Assembly (NCBI GenBank): GCA_964592145.1
Contig: CAZQBX010000002.1
Coordinates: forward strand, 33,634-97,633
Direction of reading: 5' to 3'
Length of the DNA: 64,000 nt
DNA from: an uncultured Ignavibacteria bacterium
GTDB lineage: Bacteria; Zixibacteria; MSB-5A5; CAIYYT01
Within the stretch, counting starts at the first letter, position 1. Every line of letters starts with the position of its first letter. The translations under genes were made by a program, and so were the position numbers. Below are positions 24,369 through 56,433 of this stretch, piece by piece. The notes beneath the pieces were generated by a model that saw only the letters and a list, made by a program, of their open reading frames with translations, did not search any database and had not been told where the DNA came from.

Positions 24369-25154
24369 TTGCCGGAACATAACGAAATGGGAGAGCTTCT
24401 GGAAGTCTGGACATATACATTAGTTAGCGTGGCTGTGGTGAGTCTGATCTCTCTTGTTGGAGTTTTTACGATGTCGCTCTCCCGCGACCGACTTCAGCGG
24501 ATAACTCTCTATCTGGTGGCATTCGCAGTCGGTGGTTTGTTCGGCAATGCGTTTATCCACTTGTTGCCGGAGGCGTTCCATCACAGTGAATCCTCGATTA
24601 CGACATCACTTTTGATTGTCGTCGGCATCCTGATCTTCTTCGTATTGGAAAAGTTTCTGCGCTGGCGGCATTGCCACGTAACCTCGCACCAACACACCCA
24701 TCCGATGGCGACGCTGAACATCGTGAGTGACGCATTGCACAATCTGATTGACGGTGTGTTGATTGGTTCGACCTTTCTGGTAAGTATTCCGCTGGGAGTG
24801 ACAACCTCGGTAGCGATCGTTCTGCACGAGATACCGCAGGAAATCGGCGATTTCGGCATATTGGTACACAGCGGGATGACAGTAAGGCGGGCTCTGATAT
24901 TTAACTTCTTGTCGGCTTCGGTTGCCATGATCGGAGCAATTGTGGTATTGACATTTGGACCGAGCATCGGTCATTTGACCGAAGCGATGATTCCGGTGAC
25001 GGCGGGGGGGTTCCTGTACATTGCAGGTTCTGATTTGATTCCGGAACTACAGCACGACGTCAAGCTATCGAACTCGGTGGGACAATTTGTCTGTATTATT
25101 CTCGGAGTCGCCACCATGGCACTGTTGGTGAGCTTCAGCTCCCACGCGCATTGA
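24369..25154 (+). CDS. zupT: ZIP-family zinc/iron transporter (ZupT-like)
   Basis: HEIPQEIGDFGIL signature and a His-rich loop (HCHVTSHQHTHP); about 8 TM segments. Confidence 0.85.
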   Translation: MPEHNEMGELLEVWTYTLVSVAVVSLISLVGVFTMSLSRDRLQRITLYLVAFAVGGLFGNAFIHLLPEAFHHSESSITTSLLIVVGILIFFVLEKFLRWRHCHVTSHQHTHPMATLNIVSDALHNLIDGVLIGSTFLVSIPLGVTTSVAIVLHEIPQEIGDFGILVHSGMTVRRALIFNFLSASVAMIGAIVVLTFGPSIGHLTEAMIPVTAGGFLYIAGSDLIPELQHDVKLSNSVGQFVCIILGVATMALLVSFSSHAH

Positions 25155-27655: not shown

Positions 27656-27889
27656 CTTCTTTCGAGTACCTTTATTCACGGCATTGCATACTCTGCGGGG
27701 GAAAGTGCAACGACGCGCACAGTATGCATTTTCGTTTCGTAGCCACGTTTTTCCGCGCCTGCGCGTAACTCCATAATCAACAAGAGAATCCTTGGCTCCC
27801 CGTCGAGCTTTCTGCCGGAGGCGTGCTCGGCACAGCTATTGCGTAAGAGTATTTCCGCGAACGATAGAGAGGGAAGGAGATACACTACA

Positions 27890-28510
27890 ATGGTAGCAGC
27901 AGACATGAAGAGAGGATTCGCCGCCAATCGCTTTGAAAAGAGCGTTGAACCGCGAGTGAAGAAAGATGACGGGGGTTACTTCATCTATACGCTTAGCGAA
28001 AACGTGAAGGTCTATTTCGAGGATTATTACGGATTCCTTGAGCAGGTCGAATCGCGCGCGTTGAACGACCTGAAAGATGTCAAAATGAAACTGTCCGAGG
28101 TTCAACCTCACCAGAACGAACTTAACGCCTATCTTTATGCCCGCAAGAAGGTGATTGAGGTCTTGCTGCAGACAGTTTACAACTTCTACAGCGAAGGCAA
28201 CAACTTTGGCGTCGTAATGACTCCGTGGTGCTTCGGAACCGTTGTGCTGGAGAAGGTTGAGGCGTATCGCGATAAGTTGAGCAAGGGTAACGCGAACGAC
28301 GAAGATCTGCCGGAATATACTTATGATGTAGTGCGCTATCTTGACGAGATCTACCGCAAAACGCTGCTGGATCTGTTCGATTTCCCGGAAAAGGCGTTTT
28401 CGATGCGCTGGCAGTATTCCGAGCTGTTGAAAAGATACTCAAAAGCCCTCACCAATATTACTACCTCGCTGCAGTCAGTCATGATGTTAGTCAAGAGCTA
28501 CGGCAGCTGA
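27890..28510 (+). CDS. hypothetical protein (206 aa)
   Basis: ATG at 27890 sits 9 nt after GGAAGGAGA. The ORF-track TTG start at 27839 is probably too far upstream. No motif recognised. Confidence 0.55.
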   Translation: MVAADMKRGFAANRFEKSVEPRVKKDDGGYFIYTLSENVKVYFEDYYGFLEQVESRALNDLKDVKMKLSEVQPHQNELNAYLYARKKVIEVLLQTVYNFYSEGNNFGVVMTPWCFGTVVLEKVEAYRDKLSKGNANDEDLPEYTYDVVRYLDEIYRKTLLDLFDFPEKAFSMRWQYSELLKRYSKALTNITTSLQSVMMLVKSYGS

Positions 28511-29688: not shown

Positions 29689-32600
29689 CTAAAGCTCTTT
29701 GCCGCGCTTGAGGCGATATTCGGCCACAAGGCTGTGCATGACCGGAACCGTCAGAACTGTAATGAGCGCAATGGTCATGCCGCCAAACGACGGGATTGCC
29801 ATGGGGATCATGACGTCAGATCCTTTGCCGGATGAAGTGAGAACAGGAATCAACGCTAATAGCGTGGTGGCGACAGTCATCAGCGCGGGACGAATTCGAA
29901 TAGAGCCGGCTTGTATGATAGCTTCTTTGATTTCCACGGCGGTTGCCGGTTTCTTCTCGGTAAAGACTTGCTTGATGTACGTTGAAATCAATACACCATC
30001 GTCAGTCGCTACTCCGAACAGCGCCAGAAAGCCAACCCAGACGGCAACGGAGAGATTGTACATCTTAATATTGTAAAGCTCGCGGACATTTTCGCCAAAA
30101 AGGGAGAAGTTAAGAAACCAGTCCTGTCCGTAAAACCACATCATCAAGAACCCACCTGACCAAGCCACGAAGATGCCGGTGAAGACCAACATTGTTACCG
30201 GCACATCGCGGAACTGGAAGTAGATCAGCATAAAGATGATAAAGAGCGCAAGCGGGATGACGATTCTCAGCGTCTTCTCAGAGCGGATTTGATTTTCATA
30301 ACTGCCGGCAAAACTGTAACTCACACCGGCCGGTATGACAAACTCGCCGGACGCGATTTTTTCTTTCAGGAACTGATCGGCTTCCTCGACCACATCAACT
30401 TCGGCGCGACCCGGTTTCTTGTCAAAGATAACGTAGCCGGTAAGGAAAGTATCCTCGGATCGGATCATCATTGGTCCGCGAACGTAGTTGATTCGCGCCA
30501 GTTCGATCAGCGGAATTTGCTTGCCGTCCGAAGTTGGGACCAGGACGCGTGCTATATCTTCGATGGAATTGCGCAACTCCCGCTGATAACGCACGCGGAC
30601 CGGATATCGTTCACGGCCTTCGACAGTAGTGGTTATCGGCATGCCGCCGAGCGCGACTTCGATCACATCCTGTACATCGCGAATAGATAATCCATAGCGC
30701 GCAATGGCTTCGCGATCGATCTCAATCTCGAGATACGGATTGCCAACGATACGGTCAGCAACAACTGTTGCCGGTTCGACCGAGCCGACCTCCTTGAGCA
30801 GTCTTTCAACTTCCAGGCCCACGGCATCGACTGTTTCGAGATTCGGTCCTTTGATCTTCACGCCCATCGGCGCCCGCATTCCCGATTGCAGCATGACGAT
30901 TCGCGCCGCAATCGGCTGCAGCTTTGGCGCCGAAGTCACGCCAACAACCTTCCCGGCCTTGACGAGTTCTTCCCAAATATCATTGGCCGATCGAATATGA
31001 TCCCGCCATTGCCTGAACGGTTTGCCGTCCTCATCTGGAATCAGTCTGCCATTCTGATCGCGGACGAATGCGTTTGAGTCATCATCGAATCGGAACTTCA
31101 GGCGATTGCCGTCAGTATCGCTGATGTATTCGGATTTGTAGCTGATCACCGTCTCAATCATGGAGGTAGGCGCCGGGTCGAGTGACGACTCGACACGACC
31201 GAGCTTGCCGACGACAGATTCAATTTCGGGAACACTTTCGAAAGCTTTATCTTGAAGTTGGAGTATGCTTAAAGCCTCATCGATAGAAGCATGCGGCATC
31301 GTGGTCGGCATGTAGAGGAACGAGCCTTCATCGAGATCCGGCATGAATTCTTTGCCTGTACCGGGGAAAGCATGATTAAGCGCCACATACGGCGATGACG
31401 AGCGGATGAAGTTCGGCAGAAAACCAAAAATCGAATCAAAACCGAGCCACACCACGAAACCGATCGATACCAATCCCACCGGCATTGAGAGAAACAACAA
31501 TCGGTTATTCAGGCACCAGCGCAACACCGGCTGATAGACATGGATGAATAATTGAAATAGTGCCAGGATACCGCCGATGACAAACACGACGAAAATGAAA
31601 TTCAGCAATTCGCCCCTGCCAACACCCAATGGCATCCAGTGTTTAGTGAGAATTGAAGCGACAAATAAGGCGAGCGCGTAGTTGATGTAGCGCGGCATAT
31701 TCCGCTGAAGTGAATCGGAAAGCATCGGCTTGGCAATCATATAAGCAGCAATTGCCAAGAGCATGAGACCGGCCAGCCACAATGACCAGACAGCAATCAG
31801 GATGACGCCGGCGATGCCGAGGCCGACGGGTATTAGTCGTGAACTGCGTTTTTCCTTGCCTGGATTACTGAACATCATGTGTGCCAGAGCCGGGACGATC
31901 GTCAGTGCAACAATGACTGACGCAACCAGGGCAAAGGTTTTGGTATATGCCAGCGGCTTAAACATCTTGCCTTCGGCAGCTATCATGGTAAACACCGGCA
32001 AGAACGAAACTACTGTGGTGGCGATGGTAGTGAGTACCGCCGAGCCGACTTCCGAGGTGGCTGTAAAGATAATATCGCGGCGTGAGGTACCGGGCGGCGC
32101 TTTATCAAAGTGTCGCAGGATGTTCTCACAGATGACAATGCCCATATCCACAATGTCGCCGATGGCGATCGCAATTCCGGCGAGGGCCATGACATTGGCG
32201 TCGACGCCGAACATCTTCATCCCGATAAACGAGCCAAAGACTGCGACCGGGAGGAGCCCCGATATCAGCAATGAGCTGCGCAAGTGCATTACCATGACGA
32301 GGACGACGATGATCGTGACGATAATCTCATCGACAATTGCGGAGTTAAGTGTTCCGAGTGTCTCATAGATGAGGCCAGTACGATCATAGAACGGAACGAT
32401 GGTAACCTTCGAGACAGTGCCGTCGGCCAAGGTCTTCTGCGGCAGTCCGGCCGAGAGTTCAGCGATCTTGAGTTTGACATTCTTAATCGTCGCCAGCGGG
32501 TTCTGCCCGAATCGCGCCACAACCACGCCCCCGACGACTTCGGCACCGCCTTTGTCAAGCGCCCCACGCCGCATCGCCGGACCGAGCGTAACGGTGGCGA

Positions 32601-33477
32601 CATCTTTGAGCCGGACAGGCAGGTTGTTAGTTTGCTTGATTACCGAATTCTCGAGATCGGTGACGCTCTTTAGGAAACCAACGCCACGAATGGTGTATTC
32701 GACATTGTTGATCTCAATGGTGCCGGCACCGACATCAATGTTGGATTTGCGGACAGCCTCAAAGACGTCCTCAAGCATCACGTCGAAGGCGCGTAATGCG
32801 CTGGGGTTGACATCTACCTGATACTCTTTGACGAACCCGCCAATTGAAGCAACTTCGGCAACGCCTTCTGCAGATTGCAGAGAATAGCGAACTGTCCAAT
32901 CTTGAATCGACCTAAGCTCCTGCAAGTCCCAGCCGCCGGTCGCGTTGCCGGACGGGTCGCGTCCTTCCAGCGTATACCAGAAGACTTGTCCCAGCGCGGT
33001 CGCATCCGGACCGAGGGCGGGCTTTACACCTGGCGGGAGAACTTCCGCCGGAAGCGCATTCAGCTTCTCGAGAATTCGTGTCCGCGACCAGTAGAACTCG
33101 ACGTCATCGGTGAAGATTATGTAGATCGTGGAGAACCCGAGGTAGGAGTAGCTACGAATCGTCTTAACGCCGGGAAGCCCTAACAGCGCCGAGGTCAGTG
33201 GATAAGTAATCTGATTTTCGATATCCTGCGCCGAACGGCCGTCCCATTCGGTGAAGACGATTTGTTGATTTTCGCCGATATCGGGAATCGCGTCGACGCC
33301 GACCGGGTCGCGAGGAAGAAAGTCAATGTCCCAGTCAAACGGCGCAACCATCGTGCCCCAAACGAGTACCGCCAGGGTCATCAGCAAGACGACCAGTTTG
33401 TTGTCGAGACAGAACGCGATGATGCGGTCGATCATTGACATTCTTGATGGATCAGGGATTTGATATCGGTTACTCAT
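29689..33477 (-). CDS. cusA: HME-RND heavy-metal efflux pump, CusA/CzcA family (1262 aa)
   Basis: 12-TM RND layout, family motifs (AIGDIVDMGIV, GIAIAIGD-like), ATGA-adjacent to cusB. Confidence 0.9.
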   Translation of the reverse strand: MSNRYQIPDPSRMSMIDRIIAFCLDNKLVVLLMTLAVLVWGTMVAPFDWDIDFLPRDPVGVDAIPDIGENQQIVFTEWDGRSAQDIENQITYPLTSALLGLPGVKTIRSYSYLGFSTIYIIFTDDVEFYWSRTRILEKLNALPAEVLPPGVKPALGPDATALGQVFWYTLEGRDPSGNATGGWDLQELRSIQDWTVRYSLQSAEGVAEVASIGGFVKEYQVDVNPSALRAFDVMLEDVFEAVRKSNIDVGAGTIEINNVEYTIRGVGFLKSVTDLENSVIKQTNNLPVRLKDVATVTLGPAMRRGALDKGGAEVVGGVVVARFGQNPLATIKNVKLKIAELSAGLPQKTLADGTVSKVTIVPFYDRTGLIYETLGTLNSAIVDEIIVTIIVVLVMVMHLRSSLLISGLLPVAVFGSFIGMKMFGVDANVMALAGIAIAIGDIVDMGIVICENILRHFDKAPPGTSRRDIIFTATSEVGSAVLTTIATTVVSFLPVFTMIAAEGKMFKPLAYTKTFALVASVIVALTIVPALAHMMFSNPGKEKRSSRLIPVGLGIAGVILIAVWSLWLAGLMLLAIAAYMIAKPMLSDSLQRNMPRYINYALALFVASILTKHWMPLGVGRGELLNFIFVVFVIGGILALFQLFIHVYQPVLRWCLNNRLLFLSMPVGLVSIGFVVWLGFDSIFGFLPNFIRSSSPYVALNHAFPGTGKEFMPDLDEGSFLYMPTTMPHASIDEALSILQLQDKAFESVPEIESVVGKLGRVESSLDPAPTSMIETVISYKSEYISDTDGNRLKFRFDDDSNAFVRDQNGRLIPDEDGKPFRQWRDHIRSANDIWEELVKAGKVVGVTSAPKLQPIAARIVMLQSGMRAPMGVKIKGPNLETVDAVGLEVERLLKEVGSVEPATVVADRIVGNPYLEIEIDREAIARYGLSIRDVQDVIEVALGGMPITTTVEGRERYPVRVRYQRELRNSIEDIARVLVPTSDGKQIPLIELARINYVRGPMMIRSEDTFLTGYVIFDKKPGRAEVDVVEEADQFLKEKIASGEFVIPAGVSYSFAGSYENQIRSEKTLRIVIPLALFIIFMLIYFQFRDVPVTMLVFTGIFVAWSGGFLMMWFYGQDWFLNFSLFGENVRELYNIKMYNLSVAVWVGFLALFGVATDDGVLISTYIKQVFTEKKPATAVEIKEAIIQAGSIRIRPALMTVATTLLALIPVLTSSGKGSDVMIPMAIPSFGGMTIALITVLTVPVMHSLVAEYRLKRGKEL

Positions 33478-33480
33478 CGA

Positions 33481-35331
33481 TTAATTCACTGCCTCGAGCG
33501 TCTCTTTGATCTCGCCACAACGCAACATCATTGCGCCATAGAACGAATTGTAAACCGTGTCGACCGTTTGCAGCCAATAGGCGCCTTTGTTATCGCGCGC
33601 CATCGGACAGAACGTCAGGTAGTAATTCATGCCACTGCCGTGACCGAATGCACTCTCAAGCTCAATAATTGCTTTGGAGAGATGGAAGAAGGCGTCGCGC
33701 GCTCCTTCTAAGTCCGTGGCAACGGCGGCCTTCTCGGAATTCTTCTGCATCTGCTGTGCCAATTCCATCCAGCGACTATGTGCGGAGCCGGAGAAAAGGG
33801 ACATATCCACGTTACCAATAGTTTTGGCAAGTTGGGCGGCTGATTGTTGAGAGGCTATGACATCGTCCGCCGCCAACGCCATTTGGAACTTGAAATAATC
33901 ATTGTAGAGCGGAGTCAAGGCATCCCGAGCGGTCTCGGAAACCGCAAGTGTCTCGTTCGTTGATGAGGATCCTTTTGTTGCGGAACTGTGCTCATGCGAT
34001 GCCGGTGCGGCGCCGCCTTCGGGTGACATCATGCTTGGCTTCGCCTGAATCTGCAGTTCGCTGTCGATCTTGAAGGCACCGTTAGTGACGACCATGTCGC
34101 CCTCGACCAGTCCGTCAAGCACGACATAGTGATCGTCGATCCGGGAACCGAGCGTTATCTCGCGACCTTCAAACAAGGGACCGTCTTCGCTGGGAAGCTG
34201 CAGATAAACTACTGCCCGTTTGCCGGTGAAAAGGACAGCGGAGGCCGGCACGAGGAGTGAATTATCGGCTCCGCCGGCGCGTGTATCGACCGCAGACTTT
34301 GCCGTAGCCGTGACAAACATGTCGGGCTTTAGCCGCCCGCGGGCATTATCGACAACTGTACGCACTTGAACAGTGCGAGTCATCGGGTCGACTGTCGGGT
34401 TGATGAAACTAACCTTAGCAGCAAACTCCTCGCCTGGGATCGACTGTGAGTTAAACTTGATTTCATCGCCGATCTTGATGAGCGCCAGATCCGATTCGTA
34501 AGCTTCGAACACCGCCCATAGCTTCGAGAGGTCAGCAATTCGGAATAAGTCCATTCCGGTTTCGACGTACTGCCCTTCGACTACCATCTTCTCAACAACA
34601 GTCCCGCCATCGGGAGCGACCACCGAGATATGATCAGCGACGTCAGTCTGCGATTCAATACTTGCGATTTGTTCATCACTGAAACCAAGGAGTCGCAGTT
34701 TCTCAATGGCGGCGCGAACAGTTGCCTCGGAAGTGCTCTTCAGGATTTCGCTGTTTGATTCAGCCACACTCTGGAGTGACACCCTGGCTGCGATGAGCTC
34801 CTTCTGTGCGGACAGGAGTTCAGGCGAATAGAGTTCAAGCATTTTTTCGCCGCGCCTGACGGGCTGACCTGTTGTGTTGATGTATAGCCGGTCGATACGT
34901 CCACCGATCCGGGCGGTTATACGGGAGAGTTTTGTCTCATCGGCTGACAGTTTGCCGTAGAGTCGCAATTCGCTTTGTGCGGCACCTCGCGTAACCGGCG
35001 AAGTCGAGATTTGTGCAAGTTGTTTGGATGACTCGGACATCCGCAGTTGACGCGGACCGAGGTCTTCCGCGCCATCGGTCGTAAGTGGAATCAGATCCAT
35101 GAAGCAAATCGGACACTTGCCTTCTTTGGGTAGCTTGATCTGCGGATGCATCGAGCAAGTCCAGACCTGTGGCCCATTCGACGTTTCGCCTGACGCGCCA
35201 ATTTCTGGCGAAGTTGATTTTCCGCCGGAAAGGAGTGCACCGAGGGTGAAGGCGACAATCGTCACGGCGGCGATCGCTATCCAGAATGCCGGTTGTCTCA
35301 TCAGACCATTGCGATTGTTGAATTCATTCAT
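33481..35331 (-). CDS. cusB: RND efflux membrane-fusion protein (CusB-like) with N-terminal metal-binding motif and C-terminal DUF3347-like extension
   Basis: WTCSMHPQIKLPKEGKCPICFMDL (CusB/SilB N-terminal metal site), HlyD-like beta-barrel/lipoyl core, and a roughly 180-aa helical C-terminal tail. Confidence 0.85.
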   Translation of the reverse strand: MNEFNNRNGLMRQPAFWIAIAAVTIVAFTLGALLSGGKSTSPEIGASGETSNGPQVWTCSMHPQIKLPKEGKCPICFMDLIPLTTDGAEDLGPRQLRMSESSKQLAQISTSPVTRGAAQSELRLYGKLSADETKLSRITARIGGRIDRLYINTTGQPVRRGEKMLELYSPELLSAQKELIAARVSLQSVAESNSEILKSTSEATVRAAIEKLRLLGFSDEQIASIESQTDVADHISVVAPDGGTVVEKMVVEGQYVETGMDLFRIADLSKLWAVFEAYESDLALIKIGDEIKFNSQSIPGEEFAAKVSFINPTVDPMTRTVQVRTVVDNARGRLKPDMFVTATAKSAVDTRAGGADNSLLVPASAVLFTGKRAVVYLQLPSEDGPLFEGREITLGSRIDDHYVVLDGLVEGDMVVTNGAFKIDSELQIQAKPSMMSPEGGAAPASHEHSSATKGSSSTNETLAVSETARDALTPLYNDYFKFQMALAADDVIASQQSAAQLAKTIGNVDMSLFSGSAHSRWMELAQQMQKNSEKAAVATDLEGARDAFFHLSKAIIELESAFGHGSGMNYYLTFCPMARDNKGAYWLQTVDTVYNSFYGAMMLRCGEIKETLEAVN

Positions 35332-35416
35332 GACTCTCGGGCTCCTTGTGATTTACTTAGTCGTTTCGCGCTGCAGGCGGTATCGTGCTGTACCGCCCGT
35401 AGCGCAAGACTAACGA

Positions 35417-35917
35417 TTATCCGTGGTTGTGACCTTCGTGGCCGGTTGGTTCCTTCTTCTCCTCTTTCGGAGCCGGCTTCTGCTCGTCGAGTTTCTTTAA
35501 GTACTTCTGTGCATCCTTCGGAAACATGCTCTTGCACTTATTGCAGCAGAAGTAAACACGACGGCCTTCAAAATCACTGAAGACGGTTTTGTCTTCGAGT
35601 GTTTCACCCGAGACCGGGCAAGCAGTCTGAATATTCTGGAACAGCACACCTTCGGCTGCGGCTTTCCTGAAGTACTTATCCGGTTCGGCTTTCAACTTGG
35701 CGATGCACATCGGGCAACAGTGGTAGACACGTTGCCCCTGAATGTCGGTATAAACAGTCGAATCGATCTTGCCGCCCATTACCGGACAGTGGGTTTGATT
35801 CTTCAACTCCTTGGGAGCGTCTTTCTTTGCATCGCTCTTGGATTCCTGGCCGAATGCCGCCATCGCGGCGACAACAGTCAGCGCGATGATTGCGAACATG
35901 ATTTTGCGTAACTTCAT
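35417..35917 (-). CDS. periplasmic tandem YHS/TRASH-domain metal-binding protein with His-rich tail
   Basis: Signal peptide; two HCPVMGGKI...YHCCPMC / CPVSGE...YFCCNKC YHS-like units; C-terminal HEGHNHG. Confidence 0.75.
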   Translation of the reverse strand: MKLRKIMFAIIALTVVAAMAAFGQESKSDAKKDAPKELKNQTHCPVMGGKIDSTVYTDIQGQRVYHCCPMCIAKLKAEPDKYFRKAAAEGVLFQNIQTACPVSGETLEDKTVFSDFEGRRVYFCCNKCKSMFPKDAQKYLKKLDEQKPAPKEEKKEPTGHEGHNHG

Positions 35918-35933
35918 TTTGTTCCTCCGTAGA

Positions 35934-37283
35934 TTATTTATTGGTTGTTGGACTGCTTAGTAACGTTCCAGTGATCATTTCCAATTGTGCCAGACGGGCA
36001 GCGGCGTCTACCTTGGCGCGTTCTGCAGTGAGTTCGAAATCGAACAATTGTCGCTGGGCGTCGAGCAACATCAGGAAGTCAGTCTGTCCCGACTGGTAGG
36101 ATGTGAACGAGACGTTGAGCGATTCTTTCGCCTTAGGGATGAGTCCGTTGCGATATAGACGAAGTTTTCGCAGAGCGTCGGCATACTCGAAATTCGTCAT
36201 CGCAATCATTGAGGCGACGTCATTACGCTCTTCCTGATACATGTACTCGCTCATTCTGACTCGCGAACGCGCGGCATCGCGCATGGCACGGTTCTTGCCG
36301 AACCATATTGGCAAGGAAACCTGGACCGTCAACATGTACTCGTTCATGGTCTCCTTCTCAAGCGTCATATTATCAAGAAGTGTCGAGCGCTCGTATTCAA
36401 TACCAAACATCAATTCCGGCCAGGTCATCTTCTTGACCACCGAAACTTCCGCCCGCTGTGACTCGATTTGTTTAGATATGGATGCCAGATTAGGACTCGC
36501 GACTTCCGCAACTGCAACGAGTGAGTCGGTGGAGAGTGACAATTCCGGAACTGAAAAATCACTTGGCCATGGCAGGCTGGTTCCAGACGGCAGATTGAGC
36601 AGGGCCAATAAACGGGACTGGGCCGGCCGAAGCATCTGCTCCATGCTCCGTATCATCTCCTCCATTTGTCCCAACTCGATTTGTGCCTTGATGAGATCGG
36701 GATGCATTGCCACTCCGGCTTGATAACGGGTTCGAATGACATTTTCGAACTGGCGCATCAACTCGAAGCTCTCTTGCGTCAGGGCAAGCTGTCGTGCGGA
36801 GAGGTAGTAGTCATAGTAGGCGGACTTGACTTGATAGATGGTGCGGAGTTTTTCAGCGAGATAGGACTGATAGTCTGCATCCGAAGTTAAAGCCGCTGCG
36901 TTCTTCTTTGCACCCAAGGTGCCAAACCAAGGGAATGGCTGCATGAGTGCAAATTTCTGGCGGTCAGGCCCTACCGGATCGGAAAACTTCGTGTAACCAT
37001 AAGAGTAACTCAAAAGGGGATTGTCGAGCGCGCCGGCAGAACCCTTCATTGCAGTAGACTCTTGCCACTTCTCGAAGGCTGACTTGATCCCGCTACGATT
37101 ACTGAGTGCCAGATCAATGTAGGTCTGCAATGTGGCATTGGAGTCAATCGCGGTTAAATAGGAGCCAGAGGAAGAGCTGCCGACTGTCAATGGCTGTCCA
37201 TTCAGCAGTGCCGGTCTCGCAATAAATGCCAACAGAACTATGGCGATTAGTTTCTTCACAGGCTTCGTTACATCAAGTATCAT
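35934..37283 (-). CDS. cusC: TolC-family outer-membrane efflux protein (CusC-like)
   Basis: OEP-family tandem repeats, signal peptide, first gene of the efflux operon. Confidence 0.85.
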   Translation of the reverse strand: MILDVTKPVKKLIAIVLLAFIARPALLNGQPLTVGSSSSGSYLTAIDSNATLQTYIDLALSNRSGIKSAFEKWQESTAMKGSAGALDNPLLSYSYGYTKFSDPVGPDRQKFALMQPFPWFGTLGAKKNAAALTSDADYQSYLAEKLRTIYQVKSAYYDYYLSARQLALTQESFELMRQFENVIRTRYQAGVAMHPDLIKAQIELGQMEEMIRSMEQMLRPAQSRLLALLNLPSGTSLPWPSDFSVPELSLSTDSLVAVAEVASPNLASISKQIESQRAEVSVVKKMTWPELMFGIEYERSTLLDNMTLEKETMNEYMLTVQVSLPIWFGKNRAMRDAARSRVRMSEYMYQEERNDVASMIAMTNFEYADALRKLRLYRNGLIPKAKESLNVSFTSYQSGQTDFLMLLDAQRQLFDFELTAERAKVDAAARLAQLEMITGTLLSSPTTNK

Positions 37284-37315
37284 GCCATCGCTCGTAACTT
37301 ATTGTTTATCATTGT

Positions 37316-37353: not shown

Positions 37354-37387
37354 GGAGAATATTCTACATTGTTGTAGAATATTCTCC
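37354..37387. promoter_or_regulatory. perfect 15-bp inverted repeat (operator or enhancer-binding-protein site) in the divergent cusC / two-component intergenic region
   Basis: GGAGAATATTCTACA-ttgt-TGTAGAATATTCTCC; each arm contains the self-palindromic 10-mer AGAATATTCT. Confidence 0.7.
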
Positions 37388-37487
37388 AATCGAGAGTGTT
37401 AGAGATCGTACAATGAGGGTGGCTGTTTTGGCCGTTGTCCATATGCAACTTGACCTTGGGAGTGTTGTTGCACAAGGCATTCGCCAG

Positions 37488-37503
37488 TGGCATCGGGATT
37501 GCT
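37488..37503 (+). promoter_or_regulatory. sigma-54 (-24/-12) promoter motif upstream of the histidine kinase / sigma-54 activator operon
   Basis: TGGCAT-cggga-TTGCT: GG at 37489-90 and GC at 37501-02 with exactly 10 nt between them, flanked by consensus T residues. It lies about 120 bp downstream of the palindrome. Confidence 0.55.
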
Positions 37504-37513
37504 GTATAGATTG

Positions 37514-38593
37514 ATGAACCTGGAAAGGAAGCGATTGATCAGTATTGACGACAAGCGGTATAAGATTGCCACGATTGCCGCGATAACGCTGTTAACAACA
37601 GCAATTCACTACGGCTTCGTGCTTGAACCGATCTTTGGTGACGCACACTGGATTCACGCTGTTCACAGCCGATTCTGCTACATCCCAATTGTAATTGCCG
37701 CTGCCTGGTTTGGCTTACGCGGCGGATTGTGGACCGCGACCGCGATCACAATAACGGTTTTACCGTACGTTTTTGGCTCACAATCAAGTGAGCACAATTT
37801 TGCGGGAGAGCTGGTTGAGATCGTCTTCTATTTTGCGTTGGCGCTGTTAATCGGCGCATTGGTCGACCGAGAATGGCGGGCGCGCCGGCGGCAGCAAGAG
37901 ACGCAACTTCAACTCGAACGCTCACAGAAGCTCTCATTAGTCGGACAGGTGGCAGCAGGCGTTGCCCACGAACTGAAAAATCCGTTGGCTTCCATCAAAG
38001 GCGCGGTTGAGATCATCAGCGACGAAAACACCACGGAGAATGAAAGAAGTGAGTTCAGCGAGATTCTGTTTCGTGAAATCAAAAGGATGGATGGTACAGT
38101 TACGGAGTTTCTGGAATTTGCCCGTCCTAAACCGACTCGAATGGAGCGGCTTGACCTTTCGCAATTAGTGCAATCAAGTCTTCGTCAGTTGGAGGCACAG
38201 GCAGCCAAAGAGTCGATCACGATCGCGGAGGAGCTTGAGTCGGGCGAAGTAATTGAAGGGGACCGCGAAAAACTCCATCAGCTGATTCTGAACATTGTTT
38301 TGAATGGAATCCAAGCTTCAAGAGCCGGTGGCACCATAAAAGTAGCGCTTCGCGGTCATGCTCACGATGTTGAACTTACGTTCCATGACAACGGCCAAGG
38401 CATAAGCGCCGCAGATCTTGATCGGATTTTTGAGCCCTTTTATACTACGAGAGCCTCGGGCAGCGGGCTGGGGCTGGCAATCGTGAAATCGATCATCGAT
38501 GCGCACGGCGGAACAATCGCCATTAAGAGTGAGGTCGATGCCGGAACGACGGTCCTGGTCCAATTACCGCGCCAAGTCGGGGTCCGGTCATGA
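37514..38593 (+). CDS. sensor histidine kinase (membrane N-terminus, HisKA, HATPase_c)
   Basis: H-box VAHELKNPLASIKGAVEII, N/G1/G2 boxes (LNIVLNGIQAS, HDNGQGI, GSGLGLAIV). The start is ambiguous: ATG at 37514, or TTG at 37535 after GGAAAGGAAG. The ORF-track GTG at 37487 overlaps the sigma-54 motif. Confidence 0.85.
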   Translation: MNLERKRLISIDDKRYKIATIAAITLLTTAIHYGFVLEPIFGDAHWIHAVHSRFCYIPIVIAAAWFGLRGGLWTATAITITVLPYVFGSQSSEHNFAGELVEIVFYFALALLIGALVDREWRARRRQQETQLQLERSQKLSLVGQVAAGVAHELKNPLASIKGAVEIISDENTTENERSEFSEILFREIKRMDGTVTEFLEFARPKPTRMERLDLSQLVQSSLRQLEAQAAKESITIAEELESGEVIEGDREKLHQLILNIVLNGIQASRAGGTIKVALRGHAHDVELTFHDNGQGISAADLDRIFEPFYTTRASGSGLGLAIVKSIIDAHGGTIAIKSEVDAGTTVLVQLPRQVGVRS

Positions 38594-39927
38594 TGCGAAT
38601 ACTCCTTGCCGATGACGATACTGCCTTGCGCCGGGTTCTGGAGTTCAAATTAAAAAAGAACGGATTTGACGTTGCGGCGGTTGCTGACGGTGAAGAAGCG
38701 CTCGCACGTGTGAAGGCCGGCTCCTTTGATCTGTTGCTCGCCGATATTCGGATGCCGAGACTGACCGGTATTGAACTCCTCGAGAAAGTCCGGACGCTGG
38801 AACCTTCACTCAAAGTGATTCTCATGACCGCCTACGCAACTGTGCCACAGGCAGTCGAAGCTGTCAAAATGGGCGCATTTGACTACTTGACCAAACCATT
38901 TGAAGACGAGCAGTTGTTGGTGACGATTGATCAAGCGCTGAAATTCAAGCGGCTTGAAGATGAGAATCAGCGACTGAAGGCGGAACTAAACTTGCGTTCC
39001 GGGCTGCACGAGATCATCGGCGATTCGGAACCCGTTCGAGAGCTGAAGGAGATAATCACGCAAGTCGCGCCAACAGATGCGACGGTGTTGATCACTGGCG
39101 AATCGGGAAGCGGAAAGGAACTTGTGGCGCGGGCAATTCATGCTTTGAGTTCGCGATTTGGAGCCCAGATGGTGGCGGTCAATTGTGCAGCATTGCCGCG
39201 CGACCTTCTGGAATCGGAGTTGTTTGGCCATGTGAAGGGTGCGTTCACCGGTGCAGCGAAGGATAAACGGGGAAAGTTCGAGATCGCCGGCGGTGGAACT
39301 TTGATGCTCGATGAAATCAGCGAGTTGGCATTTGACTTGCAGGCAAAACTCCTGCGAGTAATTCAAGAGCGAACAGTATCGCCGGTGGGAAGCGAGTCGA
39401 ATCGCGAAGTGGACGTCCGCATCATTGCCGCTACTAATGTCAACCTGAAGAAACGGGTCGCCGAGGGTAAATTCCGCGAGGACCTGTTCTACCGTCTGAA
39501 CGTCATCCCGATTCATGTGCCAAGCCTTCGCAAGCGATCTTCCGACATTCCGCTTCTGGTGAGCCATTTCCTCGGACGGCTTGCGCCACGGACCGAGGTC
39601 AGGCTGGACGCGGAGTTGATGGCAATTCTGATACGACACCGTTGGCCCGGCAATGTCCGCGAATTGGAGAACCTGATCGAGCGAATGGTGGTCCTGCGCC
39701 ACGGCGATACATTGACGAAAGCAGATTTACCGCACGACTTCTCCATCGAGTGGGAGAAGCCGGAGGTTCAGCAGGCGGTAACGTTCCATGAAGCGGAGAA
39801 GAGCCTGATTCTGAGCGCGCTTGAAAAAAGCAACGGAAACCGCACCAAAGCCGCGGAATTGCTGGCGATTCCGCGACATGTATTGCTGTATCGACTGAAG
39901 AAGTATGGTATTGTCACCGACGATTGA
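38590..39927 (+). CDS. sigma-54-dependent response regulator (NtrC/ZraR family)
   Basis: REC domain (DDD...K), AAA+ sigma-54 activation domain with GESGSGKE and GAFTGA, C-terminal Fis-type HTH; ATGA overlap with the kinase. Confidence 0.92.
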   Translation: MMRILLADDDTALRRVLEFKLKKNGFDVAAVADGEEALARVKAGSFDLLLADIRMPRLTGIELLEKVRTLEPSLKVILMTAYATVPQAVEAVKMGAFDYLTKPFEDEQLLVTIDQALKFKRLEDENQRLKAELNLRSGLHEIIGDSEPVRELKEIITQVAPTDATVLITGESGSGKELVARAIHALSSRFGAQMVAVNCAALPRDLLESELFGHVKGAFTGAAKDKRGKFEIAGGGTLMLDEISELAFDLQAKLLRVIQERTVSPVGSESNREVDVRIIAATNVNLKKRVAEGKFREDLFYRLNVIPIHVPSLRKRSSDIPLLVSHFLGRLAPRTEVRLDAELMAILIRHRWPGNVRELENLIERMVVLRHGDTLTKADLPHDFSIEWEKPEVQQAVTFHEAEKSLILSALEKSNGNRTKAAELLAIPRHVLLYRLKKYGIVTDD

Positions 39928-45116: not shown

Positions 45117-46397
45117 ATGGACGTTATGAAGACAACTCGATTTCTCATATTATCGCTAATTGGTTTGACACTGTTTTCTTCGCAGACATTTGCCAATAAG
45201 ATCCTGATCTATATGGACCGAGAGCAGACCAATCACCTCAAGGCCTACGGAGTGGCCTTTTGGACACTCAAGCAGAATCGCCCGGTCGAATGGCTGCTCA
45301 ACTATCGCGGTGGTTCATTCTTAATGGACGAGTTTGAAGGCATCAAGAATTTGTGTGCGCTTCGCGGTGTTGCAGCAACCACAATCGACGCCGGCGACGA
45401 AGCGCTGATTCGTGCGACCATCGAAGAGAACAACATGGAATCAGTGCTGTTGGAGAAGGCACCTGCGGTGGCGATTTATAGCCCGCCGAACAACGAGCCC
45501 TGGGACGATGCAGTGACACTTGCGCTGCAATACGCCGAAATCGAGTACAAGACTCTTTGGGATCCCGAAGTGTTGGATGGCAAACTTGAAGAATACGACT
45601 GGCTGCATCTGCATCACGAAGATTTCACCGGCCAGTATGGACGATTCTATAATTCATTCCGCAATACACTCTGGTACCAGCAAGAGGTCGCGGCGAATGA
45701 GCAGACCGCCAGAACGCTGGGCTACCGCAAAGTCTCCGAGATGAAACGCGACGTTGCACTCGCGGTTGAAGATTTCGTTGCCCGCGGCGGTTTCATGTTC
45801 TCGATGTGCTCCGCGCCGGAGACATTCGATATCATGCTGGCCGCGCAGAACACGGATATCGTCCCGAAGGAATTCGACGGCGATGCGATCGATCCGAATT
45901 TTGCCGCCAAACTGGACTTCAGCAGATGTATGGCGTTCGAAAACTTCACATTGTCCGTCAATCCACTTGAGTACAAGCACTCCGACATCGACACCTATCC
46001 CGATCGGCAGCAATTTGCGCCGGTGCCGGATTTGGATTACTTCCAGCTGTTTGATTTTTCCGCCAAACTCGACCCGGTACCGACGATGCTGGTGCAGAAT
46101 CATGTCGGCATGGTGAAAGGTTTTATGGGGCAGTCGACTGCCTTCCGTAAATCGCTGATCAAGAAATTCGTGACTATTCTGGCGGAAGTTGACGGTCAGG
46201 ATGAAGCGCGCTACATTCACGGTAACTATGGCAAGGGCACATTTACGTTTTTGGGCGGTCACGACCCCGAAGATTATCAGCACATGGTGGGAGACCCGCC
46301 GACACAGTTGGAGCTTTACAAGGACTCGCCCGGCTACCGCTTGATTCTCAACAACATCCTCTTCCCGGCGGCGAAGAAGAAAGAACGCAAGACTTAA
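45117..46397 (+). CDS. secreted protein with class-I glutamine-amidotransferase-like (ThuA/DJ-1-type) features
   Basis: Signal peptide MKTTRFLILSLIGLTLFSSQTFA; a possible Cys nucleophile elbow (FMFSMCSAPE) and an HPE-like GGHDPEDY. Fold assignment is tentative. Confidence 0.55.
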   Translation: MDVMKTTRFLILSLIGLTLFSSQTFANKILIYMDREQTNHLKAYGVAFWTLKQNRPVEWLLNYRGGSFLMDEFEGIKNLCALRGVAATTIDAGDEALIRATIEENNMESVLLEKAPAVAIYSPPNNEPWDDAVTLALQYAEIEYKTLWDPEVLDGKLEEYDWLHLHHEDFTGQYGRFYNSFRNTLWYQQEVAANEQTARTLGYRKVSEMKRDVALAVEDFVARGGFMFSMCSAPETFDIMLAAQNTDIVPKEFDGDAIDPNFAAKLDFSRCMAFENFTLSVNPLEYKHSDIDTYPDRQQFAPVPDLDYFQLFDFSAKLDPVPTMLVQNHVGMVKGFMGQSTAFRKSLIKKFVTILAEVDGQDEARYIHGNYGKGTFTFLGGHDPEDYQHMVGDPPTQLELYKDSPGYRLILNNILFPAAKKKERKT

Positions 46398-50995: not shown

Positions 50996-51301
50996 TTATG
51001 TCCTGTGCGGTTTGAAGGCAAACTCTCGGATGCTCATCGACTCGGGTACCGGATATACGCCGGCGCCAGCGCAAAGTGGGCAAGGGCTCTTGTCAGACTG
51101 GCGAATCTCGATCATGCCGGATCCTCTACAAGCGTAACAGTCCTTGCCGGAAGTATCCTGTCCCTTGCCAAAGCAGTACATGCAGACGTGGGCGTGGTTC
51201 GGCGTTAGGCAGCGGTTGTCGACCCAGCCGCGCCCGAGGCATTCCGGGCAGGTTTTTGGCGGCCCTTCACCGGATCGCGGCCGATGCTTCTCGGTTGACA
51301 T
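50996..51301 (-). CDS. small DnaJ-type zinc-finger protein (4x CxxCxGxG)
   Basis: CPECLGRG, CMYCFGKG, CYACRGSG, CPLCAGAG; the last gene of the hydrogenase operon. The start is uncertain (ATG at 51301 or the ORF-track 51328). Confidence 0.6.
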   Translation of the reverse strand: MSTEKHRPRSGEGPPKTCPECLGRGWVDNRCLTPNHAHVCMYCFGKGQDTSGKDCYACRGSGMIEIRQSDKSPCPLCAGAGVYPVPESMSIREFAFKPHRT

Positions 51302-51782
51302 AGATTTTCTCTCCTGTATGCAATGCAAGCCATTGATCGATGCTCGCCAACGCCGGTTCGATAGCAGCCATTACCTTGGCGGTCATGGTCTCGCTCAGCG
51401 TAGTCACATCAGCGACCTCAACGGCAAGCACATCAATATGCTTCGGCATTTGGTATCCAAGCTGACTCCCCAACTTTAACGCCGTCGGGAGACTCATCTG
51501 GTGGCTGGAGGTGAGATTTCGCGATGGTGTCAGTGTCCCCATTGGGAAGAAGTGTAGGGTTCCAGGCGGAACGCCGCCGGTCACGATACTGTCAATGAGT
51601 AGGACTTTGCTTCTTCTGTTGAGCAAATCCAGCAGGCCGAATCCGGCAACCGGAGCGAATATTACCTCGACCCGGTCACACTCGTGCCGTCTTGTGTGCA
51701 GTATCCCGGCAATTGTCGGTCCGAACGAATCGTCTGACAGAACTTCGTTTCCAAGACAAAGAATCAAGAATGGCTTCAACAT
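51267..51782 (-). CDS. [NiFe]-hydrogenase maturation endopeptidase (HyaD/HycI/FrhD family)
   Basis: LGNEVLSDDSFGP and the DxxH region; overlaps the mvhA stop. Confidence 0.85.
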   Translation of the reverse strand: MLKPFLILCLGNEVLSDDSFGPTIAGILHTRRHECDRVEVIFAPVAGFGLLDLLNRRSKVLLIDSIVTGGVPPGTLHFFPMGTLTPSRNLTSSHQMSLPTALKLGSQLGYQMPKHIDVLAVEVADVTTLSETMTAKVMAAIEPALASIDQWLALHTGEKIYVNREASAAIR

Positions 51783-53260
51783 TGCCTTTTGACGACCTCG
51801 ATTACTTCGCCACTCTCCGCAGAATGAACAACAATCTCCAGAGGCATCTCACCCGGAAGCGAGTGCGTCGCGCAACCAAAACATGGATCGTAAGCGCGAA
51901 AAGCCATCTCAATCCGATTGAGTACGCCGTCGGTAATGGTCGTACCCTTCTTGATCAACCCCTCGGCGGCGCGCTTGATTGACATCGTAATCGGCGCATT
52001 GTTGTTGGTCGTACCGACAATGAGATTTGCTTCGGTGACGATTCCATTCTGATCGGTCTTGTAGTGGTGCGTCAAGGTACCGCGCGGCGCTTCGACGGTG
52101 CCGACGCCCTCGCCAACGATGCCTGTCGGAGGTTCGAGGATGTGATCGGAAGTTATCTCGTCATCCTTGGCTTGCTCCAAAGTGGCTTCGCAGGCAAACA
52201 TCAACTCGACTACGCGCGCCCAGTGTGTTGCCAACGTAGAGTTGACCGGTATCTTCCCAGTGCGATCTCCAGTCAACGTTTCAAAGTAGCGTTCGTACTC
52301 GGCGTGTGCGAGCGGTGTCGCCATACCATCGGCGACATTGAGTCGAGCCAGCGGCGTTGCTTTGTAAACACCAGAGTCCATTCCATCGACGAACCCCTTC
52401 CAACCGACTTTCTTCAAGTAAGGGTACTTGAGATAAGAATAGGGCTCGACGCGCTCTTCAACATACTGGAGATAGTCCTTCGGCTCGTATTTGGCATGTT
52501 CCGATCCGTCGGGTGCTGTTACACGTACTTTGCCGTCATAGAAGGTGACGTGATTGTTGTCATCAACCAGTCCCATATTGTAGGTTTGGTGCGCATAGGA
52601 ATCAGAAAGAATCATTTCGAGATAAGTCTTGTTCGCAAGAACGATATCATTCAAAACCTGAATCGTGAACTTGGCGAACTCGACCATTTCTTCACCGATC
52701 TTGATGATTTCCTGTTGCTCTTCTTTGGTGACGCGTTTGCTCATTCCGCCTGGTAAGGCGGTGACCGGGTGCACTTTCTTACCGCCGATGATCTCGATCA
52801 CACGCTGACCGCGGGCCCGCTGGGCAATGACCTTCTTGCCGACATCCAGACCTACCTTGGCGATTACACCGAGGATATTGCGCTCAGCTTTCGGTGCGTC
52901 GGGACCACAGACGAAGTCCGGCCCGCCCAGAGCATAAAAGTGAGTTGTGTGATCACCTGCATAAAACGCGTTGTAGACTAATTCGCGCAATTTGCGCGCC
53001 GCCGACGGAATAGTAACGCCGTATACGGCATCAGCGGCCTTTGCCGACGCCATGTGATGTGCGTCAGGGCAGACACCGCAGATTCGGGTGGTAATGCGCG
53101 CCAATTCTTCGACCGGCCGCCCCTGACAGAACTTCTCGAAACCGCGAAGTTCCGGAACCTGGAAGTAACAGTTGGCCAACTCACCATCGTCGTTGATGAA
53201 CAGGTGAATCTTGCCGTGCCCCTCAAGGCGCGTGATCGGATCGATGACAATGCTCTTCAT
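51776..53260 (-). CDS. mvhA: [NiFe]-hydrogenase large subunit, Mvh/group-3 type
   Basis: N-terminal RICGVC and C-terminal DPCFGCATH Ni-Fe ligands with a short post-His tail for protease cleavage. Confidence 0.93.
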   Translation of the reverse strand: MKSIVIDPITRLEGHGKIHLFINDDGELANCYFQVPELRGFEKFCQGRPVEELARITTRICGVCPDAHHMASAKAADAVYGVTIPSAARKLRELVYNAFYAGDHTTHFYALGGPDFVCGPDAPKAERNILGVIAKVGLDVGKKVIAQRARGQRVIEIIGGKKVHPVTALPGGMSKRVTKEEQQEIIKIGEEMVEFAKFTIQVLNDIVLANKTYLEMILSDSYAHQTYNMGLVDDNNHVTFYDGKVRVTAPDGSEHAKYEPKDYLQYVEERVEPYSYLKYPYLKKVGWKGFVDGMDSGVYKATPLARLNVADGMATPLAHAEYERYFETLTGDRTGKIPVNSTLATHWARVVELMFACEATLEQAKDDEITSDHILEPPTGIVGEGVGTVEAPRGTLTHHYKTDQNGIVTEANLIVGTTNNNAPITMSIKRAAEGLIKKGTTITDGVLNRIEMAFRAYDPCFGCATHSLPGEMPLEIVVHSAESGEVIEVVKRQC

Positions 53261-54228
53261 ACTTGCACCCTCCGCAGTAGCGACCCGGCCATGCTGAAGC
53301 GATAGAATGTTCCCAGCGGATCGGGAATGGTGTTGATGATCTGTTCGATCTCTTCCGGATCAGTAGAATCGATCACGCTGGCCAGAGCCGAGACCATCTT
53401 GGCACCCTGGTCATTGATGTTTGACGGGAGCCCATAGCAGCCGCGACACGGCATTCCCGCTTTGACGCATTTGGCTCCACAGCCGGAACGAGTTGCCGGT
53501 CCAAGACAGACGATGCCTTGCTCCATCAGACATAGATTCGGATCAGTGACCTTGGCAAACGGGCGTGTGAAGGATTTGATCTTCTTGATATTGCGTTCGC
53601 GCGGGCACTCGTCACAACAGCTTTTGTCGGTTGCGCCGAGAACTGTCCCCTTGGGAGGCAGTGGCTTGTTGTTCTGGAGAATGTCGATTACCGCCATGAC
53701 CGCGTTGACTATTTGATCGGACTGGGGCGGACAGCCGGGAATGTAGTAGTCAACCTCAACTACCTGATCGAGTGATCGAACTGTATTCCAGAACTTCGGA
53801 ATGGTAATGGTCCCTTCGGAAACCTGAACTTCCGGCTGCGGTTCGACCTTGCCACCATTGGCGAGCGAAGGTGATTTGTGATAGACGTAATCGAGGATTA
53901 TCTCTTTGTTGAAGAAGTTCGCCAACGCCGGAATGCACCCTTCGCCGGCACAACTGCCGAAGGCCACCAGGACCACCGATTTTTGGCGCAGCAGTTCGGC
54001 GAGTTCGTAGTTTTCACTAGTCCGAATTGCGCCGTTGAAGAGCGTTAGCGTGATTGACTTGTCTTCCATTGCGCGGACATCGTCGTACTTGGTATCCATC
54101 GCGCAGGGCCAGAAAACGACATCAAAGAAATTCGCCACATCGAGGATCTTCTCTTCGATATCGAGAATGGATATGTCGCAGCCGCCGCATGAGGAGGCCC
54201 AGTATATGGCAAGTTTAGGTTTAGACAT
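53257..54228 (-). CDS. mvhG: [NiFe]-hydrogenase small subunit, MvhG type
   Basis: [23 protein letters not shown] proximal cluster motif. The start ATG at 54228 sits 7 nt after GGAGGTG; the ORF-track start at 54249 is not needed. Confidence 0.9.
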
Positions 54229-56427: not shown

Positions 56428-56433
56428 TGTCTC

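Follow-up and report, generated by a model that had tools for sequence, protein, structure and literature searches.

A candidate sigma-54-controlled Cus-type efflux cassette with a secreted tandem-YHS protein, a DUF3347-bearing adaptor and a long pump

Organization of the efflux operon

We analysed a window of 64,000 nucleotides (nt) from an uncultured Ignavibacteria bacterium placed by GTDB in the Zixibacteria (contig CAZQBX010000002.1, positions 33,634 to 97,633), focusing on a heavy-metal efflux operon and the two-component system that lies divergent to it. Between positions 29689 and 37283 the minus strand carries four consecutive open reading frames (ORFs), which encode in order an outer-membrane factor (OMF), a secreted tandem-YHS/TRASH protein, a membrane-fusion protein (MFP, hereafter the adaptor) and a pump. 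The OMF is CusC/TolC-like and has 441 amino acids (aa) when read from a revised GTG start (35934..37259; PF02321 OEP, E=9e-42). The YHS protein has 166 aa (35417..35917; PF04945 and an internal repeat) and the adaptor 616 aa (33481..35331; PF19335, PF16576 and PF11827). The pump, with 1262 aa (29689..33477; PF00873 and TIGR00914), belongs to the CusA/CzcA family of heavy-metal efflux (HME) transporters of the resistance–nodulation–division (RND) type.

This gene order is that of Escherichia coli K-12, cusC-cusF-cusB-cusA, so the YHS gene occupies the cusF position. A sequence-only reading of the window had described the same four genes, as cusC-like, YHS, cusB-like and cusA-like, and we find them on the minus strand at the coordinates it gave. 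Our analysis bears out this earlier gene-level description almost exactly, the sole correction being the start of the OMF gene. The three parts that set the operon apart, namely the tandem-YHS protein, the adaptor with its C-terminal extension and the unusually long pump, co-occur in many genomes as a conserved and fairly widespread cassette and are not a peculiarity of this one.

A secreted tandem-YHS protein in the cusF position

The 166-aa protein scores 32.8 bits on PF04945 (gathering score 30.3) through its second repeat, at about 35489-35632 on the minus strand. Comparison of the two halves of the protein revealed a first repeat at about 35657-35800 that is 43% identical to the second (E=9e-14). 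Each repeat contains four cysteines, arranged as C43-x22-C66-C67-x2-C70 and C99-x23-C123-C124-x2-C127. The protein begins with a signal peptide, MKLRKIMFAIIALTVVAAMAAF/GQE, and ends in a His-rich stretch, HEGHNHG, matching the earlier description of a secreted protein with two YHS/TRASH-like motifs and a His-rich terminus. Across 25 homologues, no change is seen in any of the eight cysteines or in M46, D51 and D57, and the His tail is nearly invariant.

The domain scan that the sequence-only reading had named beforehand as a check assigned the small protein to the YHS family PF04945 and identified PF11827 (DUF3347) in the adaptor. Neither Pfam nor NCBIfam returned a match to the CusF OB-fold (oligonucleotide/oligosaccharide-binding fold) domain PF11604 in the 166-aa protein, and a sequence search of the PDB with this protein returned no meaningful or solved relative. 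The protein shares only its operon position with CusF and not its fold family, as had been proposed when it was described as a tandem-YHS protein standing where CusF would be expected.

The only experimental work on a YHS domain that we found in the literature concerns the adenylyl cyclase of M. phlei, whose YHS domain has a copper-sensing role, with binding proposed to occur through one Asp and three Cys residues (PMC4626032). The YHS/TRASH domains of that enzyme and of archaeal CopR/CopM share with the window protein a C-x(19-23)-C-x3-C pattern with a conserved Asp. However, those domains are cytoplasmic and fused to enzymes, ATPases or regulators, whereas the window protein is free-standing, secreted and tandem, has a His-rich tail and is encoded inside an RND operon. 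By analogy, the YHS protein may bind metal through its Cys/Asp sites and its His tail.

Homologues of the YHS protein fall into at least 769 clusters, and none was found in a plasmid collection. Some of them have three repeats instead of two (236-238 aa). Elsewhere in the 64-kb window we found no second copies of YHS, HMBD, DUF3347 or DUF2231-YHS genes.

An adaptor with two additional candidate metal sites

Three Pfam domains are recognized in the adaptor: the heavy-metal-binding domain (HMBD) PF19335 at residues 56-82 (39 bits; threshold 23.6), PF16576 at residues 119-340 and the DUF3347 domain PF11827 at residues 475-566 (68.2 bits; gathering score 25.5). An AlphaFold2 model based on 58 homologues has a mean predicted local distance difference test (pLDDT) score of 80.8. 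The predicted chain starts with a transmembrane (TM) anchor, an N-terminal helix at residues 14-34, which is followed by a flexible linker and the HMBD (residues 56-83; DNA 35086-35166, minus strand). The core has an MFP fold that resembles CusB and ZneB in structural comparison. A disordered 35-residue linker containing the sequence HEH (residues 431-465) then leads to the DUF3347 domain (residues 466-616; DNA 33484-33936, minus strand), which is modelled as four helices and a three-stranded sheet with pLDDT values of 83-97. The C-terminal extension that had been called DUF3347-like and four-helical from its sequence is thus both a PF11827 match and a confidently predicted four-helix bundle with a small sheet.

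The HMBD segment CSMHPQIKLPKEGKCPICFMDL aligns with the N-terminal metal site of CusB, whose M49, M64 and M66 correspond to M61, C76 and M78 of the adaptor; C59, H62 and C73 are additional in the adaptor. This segment, CSMHP...CPICFM, is the CusB-like N-terminal MHP...CPICxM site noticed from the sequence alone. The HMBD family PF19335 also occurs at the N-terminus of Cu P-type ATPases (PDB entries 8ovl and 3rfu were matched). On the CusB model NF007303 the adaptor reaches 124.6 bits, compared with a cutoff of 390, and it is a distant CusB relative with extra domains, not a CusB orthologue.

Invariant residues in the C-terminal domain of adaptor homologues are H518, M522, H564, C575-P576-M577, W586, M602 and C605. 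They include a CPM...MLRCG segment (residues 567-616) that extends past the Pfam DUF3347 model. The abundance of His, Cys and Met among these residues suggests that the DUF3347 domain holds a soft-metal site, formed by a His2/Cys2/Met cluster. To our knowledge, no function has been assigned to DUF3347 (PF11827). A profile search of the PDB returned no meaningful solved relative of the domain, and by fold it matches generic four-helix bundles only.

Many homologous adaptors are larger (680-990 aa), a second HMBD (GKWISPMHPE...CDVCGMDLV) being inserted into a core loop. Examples of extra HMBDs or YHS repeats are found in the related loci L003, L004 and L012 (8544-10616; adaptor alignment columns ~410-450) and in P0005 and P0006. 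Together with the three-repeat YHS proteins, these second HMBDs indicate that the number of metal modules varies within the family.

A Cus-type pump with internal insertions

The pump scores 749.2 bits on TIGR00914, the CusA/CzcA family model (cutoff 701.45), and also matches PF00873. Its best PDB matches are E. coli CusA structures (E=1.4e-180), with ZneA at E=3.5e-112. We used MAFFT to align it to nine long homologues and to E. coli CusA, which has 1047 aa. The three-Met site of E. coli CusA (M573, M623 and M672, corresponding to M723, M773 and M862) is invariant in the window pump and the nine homologues, as are E567, D617, R669 and D405 (E. coli numbering). The TM4 motif AIGDIVDMGIVICEN reads AIG..D.....EN, which is of the Cus type; in the established HME-class signatures, the CzcA-type TM4 motif is DFG-DGA-VEN. 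We propose from these sequence features, with moderate confidence, that the pump substrate is Cu(I)/Ag(I) taken from the periplasm.

Transmembrane methionine pairs of CusA have been proposed to mediate metal uptake from the cytoplasm. At the positions of M403, M410, M486 and M501, the window pump has I442, I449, L517 and W564, and M391 and M1009 are retained. Because the transmembrane pairs are lost, uptake from the periplasm is the likely route. Of the proton-relay residues D405, E939 and K984, the first is kept, the second is replaced by Asp and the third is aligned with Ala, although the alignment in the C-terminal TM region may be shifted.

That the system instead exports Zn(II)/Cd(II), Hg(II), Au or some other thiophilic metal is a rather improbable alternative. 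The Cys-rich TRASH/YHS and HMBD sites would accommodate it, as they are not metal-specific by sequence, and so would the ZraR-like regulator described below, the unconserved K984 and the absence of the TM Met pairs. The pump is, moreover, about 35-40% like E. coli CusA and lies barely above the TIGR00914 cutoff. However, the invariant three-Met cluster separates CusA/SilA from divalent HME pumps, the TM4 motif is Cus-like and the match to ZneA is far weaker than that to CusA (E=3.5e-112 compared with 1.4e-180).

The pump exceeds E. coli CusA by 215 residues, close to the difference of about 200 aa noted earlier. The extra residues comprise a 14-residue N-terminal extension, a set of blocks between TM6 and TM7, inserts of 25, 38 and 22 residues and several short indels. 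Insertion 1, between TM6 and TM7, is hydrophobic and adds about 92 residues in four blocks within residues 531-643 (31549..31887, minus strand). The 25-residue insert follows TM7 (residues 678-702; 31372..31446, minus strand) and is accompanied by conserved W677, G679 and P688. In total, about 117 extra residues surround TM6-TM7 in the alignment. Insertion 2 is a partly conserved acidic periplasmic segment of 38 residues with low pLDDT (residues 784-821; 31015..31128, minus strand), which adjoins the strand carrying M773 and is placed by the alignment between the counterparts of E. coli residues 633 and 634. Insertion 3 spans 22 residues (1118-1139; 30061..30126, minus strand) and forms the loop between C-terminal TM helices predicted at ~1092-1117 and 1145-1175.

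From an AlphaFold2 model of pump residues 63-1262 (mean pLDDT 61.7; predicted template modelling score 0.48) we used the secondary structure of the insertions alone. It predicts helices at residues 548-564, 567-585, 588-614 and 623-657 of insertion 1, with pLDDT values of 60-87. Hydropathy is strongly membrane-like at 545-587 and 617-652 and weakly so at 596-613. Extra spans must come in pairs to preserve the topology, which would raise the canonical 12 TM helices to 14 or, more probably, 16. The best-conserved part of insertion 1 is a loop, H613-W614-x-P616-x-G618...G622...N626.

The long form recurs far beyond this genome. A search with insertion 1 by itself recovers 272 representative clusters (E<=1e-3), whose full-length members have 1224-1347 aa. 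The best 120 of 8000 scored pump clusters come from independent assemblies and are 68-97% identical and 1223-1271 aa long, and 36 complete pump ORFs in related genomes measure 1260-1310 aa from stop to stop, with insertion 1 in every one. There is next to no chance, then, that the length of this CusA is an artefact, whether of an internal repeat, a frameshift fusion or a wrongly called start. The choice of start codon affects no more than the 14 residues of the N-terminal extension, whereas the other extra residues are internal and sit at fixed positions. The CusA alignment, a second check named beforehand in the sequence-only reading, thereby traced the extra length to internal insertions and ruled out a mis-called start.

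A divergent two-component system and a predicted -24/-12 promoter

The plus-strand genes divergent to the operon encode a histidine kinase (37487..38593; 368 aa; Pfam DUF4118, a weak match, HisKA and HATPase_c) and a sigma-54-dependent response regulator (38590..39927; 445 aa) with Response_reg, Sigma54_activat and HTH_8 (Fis-type helix-turn-helix) domains and a GAFTGA motif. The true start of the kinase may be the ATG at 37514. Neither these regulators nor the promoter and upstream boxes described below featured in the sequence-only reading. In related loci, too, the regulator and kinase genes adjoin the cassette in divergent orientation. The compact sensor part of the kinase is predicted to have four TM helices and lacks a large periplasmic domain. 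It contains the motif IHYG..EP.FG..W.HA.H.R.CY, which is conserved in 58 homologues and could form a metal site on the membrane surface. By NCBIfam, the kinase core is nearest AtoS/ZraS (ZraS score 208, equivalog cutoff 479) and the regulator is nearest AtoC, NtrC and ZraR, all below their equivalog cutoffs (ZraR 416, cutoff 760). Judged by these scores, the two proteins are unlikely to be ZraS/ZraR orthologues.

The 203-bp intergenic region contains the sequence GGAGAATATTCTACA-ACAA-TGTAGAATATTCTCC, two palindromic boxes (37354..37387) with centres 20 bp apart. The sequence AGAATATTCT occurs at 37356-37365 and again at 37376-37385, whereas 0.06 matches are expected in the window. These paired boxes are probable binding sites for the response regulator. 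Most related loci have boxes built around GAATATT, some 80-100 bp upstream of the promoter element described next. A third exact AGAATATTCT box at 57590-57599, inside a gene for a NuoF-like Fe-S flavoprotein (56434-58449) of a NiFe-hydrogenase cluster, is probably there by chance.

A sigma-54-type -24/-12 promoter, TGGCATGATACTTGA, is predicted at 37273..37287 on the minus strand. A search for the canonical sigma-54 element TGGCAC-N5-TTGC yielded almost no match. Once the -12 element was read as TTGA/TTGT, the pattern was relaxed to [TCA]GG[CG]A[CT]-N5-[TC]TGN and proved highly enriched. Among 56 distinct related intergenic regions, 48 contain it on the operon strand, compared with a mean of 1.1 and a maximum of 4 in shuffled sequences and with 1 on the reverse strand. 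In the relatives the element takes the form [TC]GGCA[CT]-N5-TTG[AT], with TTGA or TTGT, not TTGC, at -12.

The position of this promoter bears on the start of the OMF gene. The -24/-12 element overlaps ATG 37283, the first ATG of the longest possible OMF ORF (449 aa), and in the close relative L005 the equivalent GTG is preceded by an in-frame stop codon. In the window and about a dozen relatives, the start codon is found 13-15 nt past the -12 element, other relatives having leaders of 40-110 nt. Because of this overlap, the stop codon in L005 and the spacing in relatives, the OMF most likely starts at GTG 37259 (MKKLIAIVLL...) and has 441 aa. The operon transcript would then be nearly leaderless, with the adaptor gene preceded by a normal AAGGAG Shine-Dalgarno sequence.

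That Shine-Dalgarno sequence comes after a stable RNA stem-loop without a T-run, which directly follows the YHS stop codon (35357..35413, minus strand). The stem-loop has a minimum free energy of -32.3 kcal/mol (z=-4.0), and none of 200 shuffled sequences was equally stable. It may set the ratio of the OMF and YHS protein to the adaptor and pump. Comparable hairpins are confined to the closest clade (L005-L008), other relatives having spacers of 18-40 nt, and we rejected the stem-loop as a family-wide trait. Scans of the operon for terminators and sigma-70 consensus sequences gave no excess over shuffle expectation and were uninformative.

Distribution and linkage of the cassette

A scan of one genome per species identified relatives of the YHS protein in 477 species genomes, of which we examined the best 80. 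These 80 loci come from Zixibacteria, Ignavibacteria, Calditrichota, Chitinivibrionia and other metagenome-assembled genomes, mostly of the Fibrobacterota–Chlorobiota–Bacteroidota (FCB) group. The locus nearest to the window, CAUJJY010000237.1, encodes a YHS protein that is 99% identical. Most of the 80 loci contain the cassette. The complete set, with regulator and kinase divergent to OMF, YHS protein, DUF3347 adaptor and long CusA, is present in 34 of the 80 loci, and in about 50 the YHS gene is followed by that of a DUF3347-bearing adaptor. All adaptors that could be read to their end contain DUF3347, and all complete pumps are of the long form. The long pump and the DUF3347 adaptor are always found as a pair and alongside the YHS protein, whose own tightest linkage is to the two-component system.

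This last linkage is clearest in 13-15 loci that have no pump in the operon. There, the YHS gene has its own -24/-12 promoter and is directly divergent to the kinase and regulator genes. Downstream of it lie housekeeping genes in locus L043 and genes for a YHS-DUF2231 membrane protein and cytochrome bd in L063; in some pump-less loci, genes for an ordinary-length pump, without DUF3347, are found across the two-component genes. These arrangements, and the kinship of the kinase and regulator with AtoS/ZraS and AtoC/NtrC/ZraR, favour an alternative in which the tandem-YHS protein works chiefly with the two-component system, buffering metal in the periplasm or modulating the signal, and is no dedicated chaperone of the pump. 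An older sensor-plus-binder module would then have gained the pump genes. Analogues would be ZraP with ZraSR, or free-standing binders of the CusF, CopK or SilE type. We regard this alternative as the main rival, though a less likely one. In about 50 of the 80 loci the YHS gene stands between those for OMF and adaptor, at the cusF place; it co-occurs with an adaptor that bears two extra candidate metal sites; and the YHS protein has no homology to ZraP. The two roles are, moreover, compatible. Since the YHS gene can stand alone beside the two-component system, the chaperone role suggested by the cusF position is inferred and may include buffering or sensing. The earlier proposal of a Cu(I)/Ag(I)-type system with a non-canonical metallochaperone is partly supported: the Cus-type HME-RND assignment held up, with an invariant three-Met site in the pump, and the YHS protein is a candidate for handing metal to the pump.

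In many loci, a gene for a YHS and DUF2231 membrane protein of about 280-310 aa follows that of the pump or the lone YHS gene (L001, 14314-15153; L003, 14424-15359; L063, 9499-10341); it is missing from the window. In some genomes the cassette adjoins a transposase (rve) or Replic_Relax gene (L001, 15849-16522; L003/L004, 1595-2467), which hints at horizontal mobility.

Genomic surroundings

The minus strand at 51267-59932 bears a cluster reminiscent of a bidirectional (Hox-type) hydrogenase, with genes for large and small NiFe-hydrogenase subunits, for NuoF/NuoE-like proteins and for ferredoxin-domain proteins. Such a cluster fits anaerobic or microaerobic life, in which periplasmic thiolate ligands could stay reduced. 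A gene for a ZIP-family metal importer (24369-25154) lies about 4.5 kb from the efflux operon, with lptF/lptG, an ORF of 223 aa and an HD-domain gene between them and no sign of co-regulation. This ORF (27839-28510), located between lptFG and the HD-domain gene just downstream of the operon, has no match in Pfam or NCBIfam; a 426-aa ORF at 45117-46397 has no match in Pfam, the one collection against which it was scanned.

Discussion

The closest known counterparts of the operon are the E. coli CusCFBA and SilCFBA systems. They have the same order of OMF, small periplasmic metal-binding protein, adaptor and pump, the same three-Met site in a TIGR00914 pump, a metal site at the N-terminus of the adaptor and control by a divergent two-component system. 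The differences from CusCFBA lie in the small protein, the adaptor, the pump and the regulator. A Cys-rich tandem YHS/TRASH protein is encoded where CusF, an OB-fold protein with a Met/His/Trp site, is found in E. coli, and the window adaptor is TM-anchored and contains a full Cys-containing HMBD as well as a C-terminal DUF3347 domain. The window pump has 215 more residues, two to four extra predicted TM helices, three other inserts and no TM Met pairs, whereas the canonical pump has 12 TM helices and ~1045 aa. Control would involve a sigma-54 enhancer-binding regulator and a -24/-12 promoter in place of the OmpR-type CusR.

In its regulation the locus is more similar to ZraPSR of Enterobacteria, in which a kinase and an NtrC-type regulator are likewise transcribed divergently from the gene of a small secreted metal-binding protein (binding being predicted in our case), with a sigma-54-type promoter and paired upstream palindromic boxes. 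The 13-15 loci with a lone YHS gene reproduce this three-gene module by itself. However, ZraP belongs to the CpxP/Spy family and is unrelated to the YHS protein, the window kinase lacks the periplasmic domain of ZraS, and a full RND pump is usually encoded in the same operon as the YHS protein.

Taken together, we consider it fairly probable that the operon and its divergent regulators form a tripartite efflux system of the Cus type that is under sigma-54 control and exports Cu(I)/Ag(I) or a metal of similar softness. In such a system, the four-TM histidine kinase would sense metal at its conserved His/Cys/Glu site on the membrane surface and phosphorylate the NtrC-type regulator, which would bind the two AGAATATTCT boxes and activate the -24/-12 promoter, leading to expression of the OMF, YHS protein, adaptor and pump. 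The secreted tandem-YHS protein would bind metal through two Cys3-4/Asp sites and its His tail, and would either act as a buffer or deliver the metal to the adaptor. With its anchor in the inner membrane, the adaptor would offer two tethered candidate sites, the N-terminal HMBD and the C-terminal DUF3347 domain, and the pump would take metal from the periplasm via its three-Met site. More speculatively, the extra helices and acidic insert of the pump may form a docking surface for its partners. We infer the regulatory scheme from motifs and linkage, and the same status applies to metal binding by the YHS and DUF3347 domains, the hand-off, the sensing by the kinase and the role of the extra helices.

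Several observations weigh against this interpretation. The metal is deduced from conserved residues only, and a Cys4 YHS/TRASH site could equally bind Zn, Cd, Hg or a structural metal. In 13-15 of the 80 loci the operon beside the two-component system contains no pump gene and the YHS gene alone is under the control of that system, so the YHS protein does not need the pump. With Ala aligned to K984 and Asp to E939, the proton relay may not be identical to that of E. coli CusA. Furthermore, the model of the pump is weak and helix 596-613 is weakly hydrophobic, so the number of extra TM helices is two or four.

A broader proposal goes beyond the assignment to Cus-type efflux, and we advance it tentatively. 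The atypical parts may constitute a co-evolved metal relay, defining a distinct HME-RND class in mainly anaerobic, mostly FCB-group bacteria, in which a Cys-based tandem-YHS carrier would take the place of CusF and load the HMBD and the DUF3347 His2Cys2Met site of the TM-anchored adaptor, and metal would move on to the three-Met site of a 14- or 16-TM pump, with the extra helices and the acidic insert as a docking platform. If this relay were real, it would provide the first function for DUF3347 and the first RND pump of this family with more than 12 TM helices.

In the literature we found no paper that deals with DUF3347, with a secreted YHS protein encoded in an RND operon, with a long CusA or with this cassette in Zixibacteria. 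Automated annotation already applies the labels 'CusA/SilA', 'membrane fusion protein' and 'YHS domain-containing protein', and all the domains are in Pfam. The cassette is a variant within the known Cus-type systems and not a new category of system, and it will interest mainly specialists in metal homeostasis and RND transport.

Cus is the textbook model of a periplasmic chaperone, an adaptor and an RND pump that pass Cu(I) along a methionine relay. The cassette keeps the Met site of the pump and swaps or adds stations upstream of it, with what would be a carrier using thiolate ligands, two further sites on the adaptor and additional membrane helices, and it also shifts the regulatory logic to sigma-54. 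It thereby suggests functions that can be tested for DUF3347 and the secreted YHS domain, both of which are poorly understood, and would represent a natural experiment in periplasmic metal hand-off with cysteine instead of methionine ligands. The cassette occurs in hundreds of uncultured species that inhabit sediments, mats and groundwater, and it may thus be what chiefly protects a large group of anaerobes against copper and silver.

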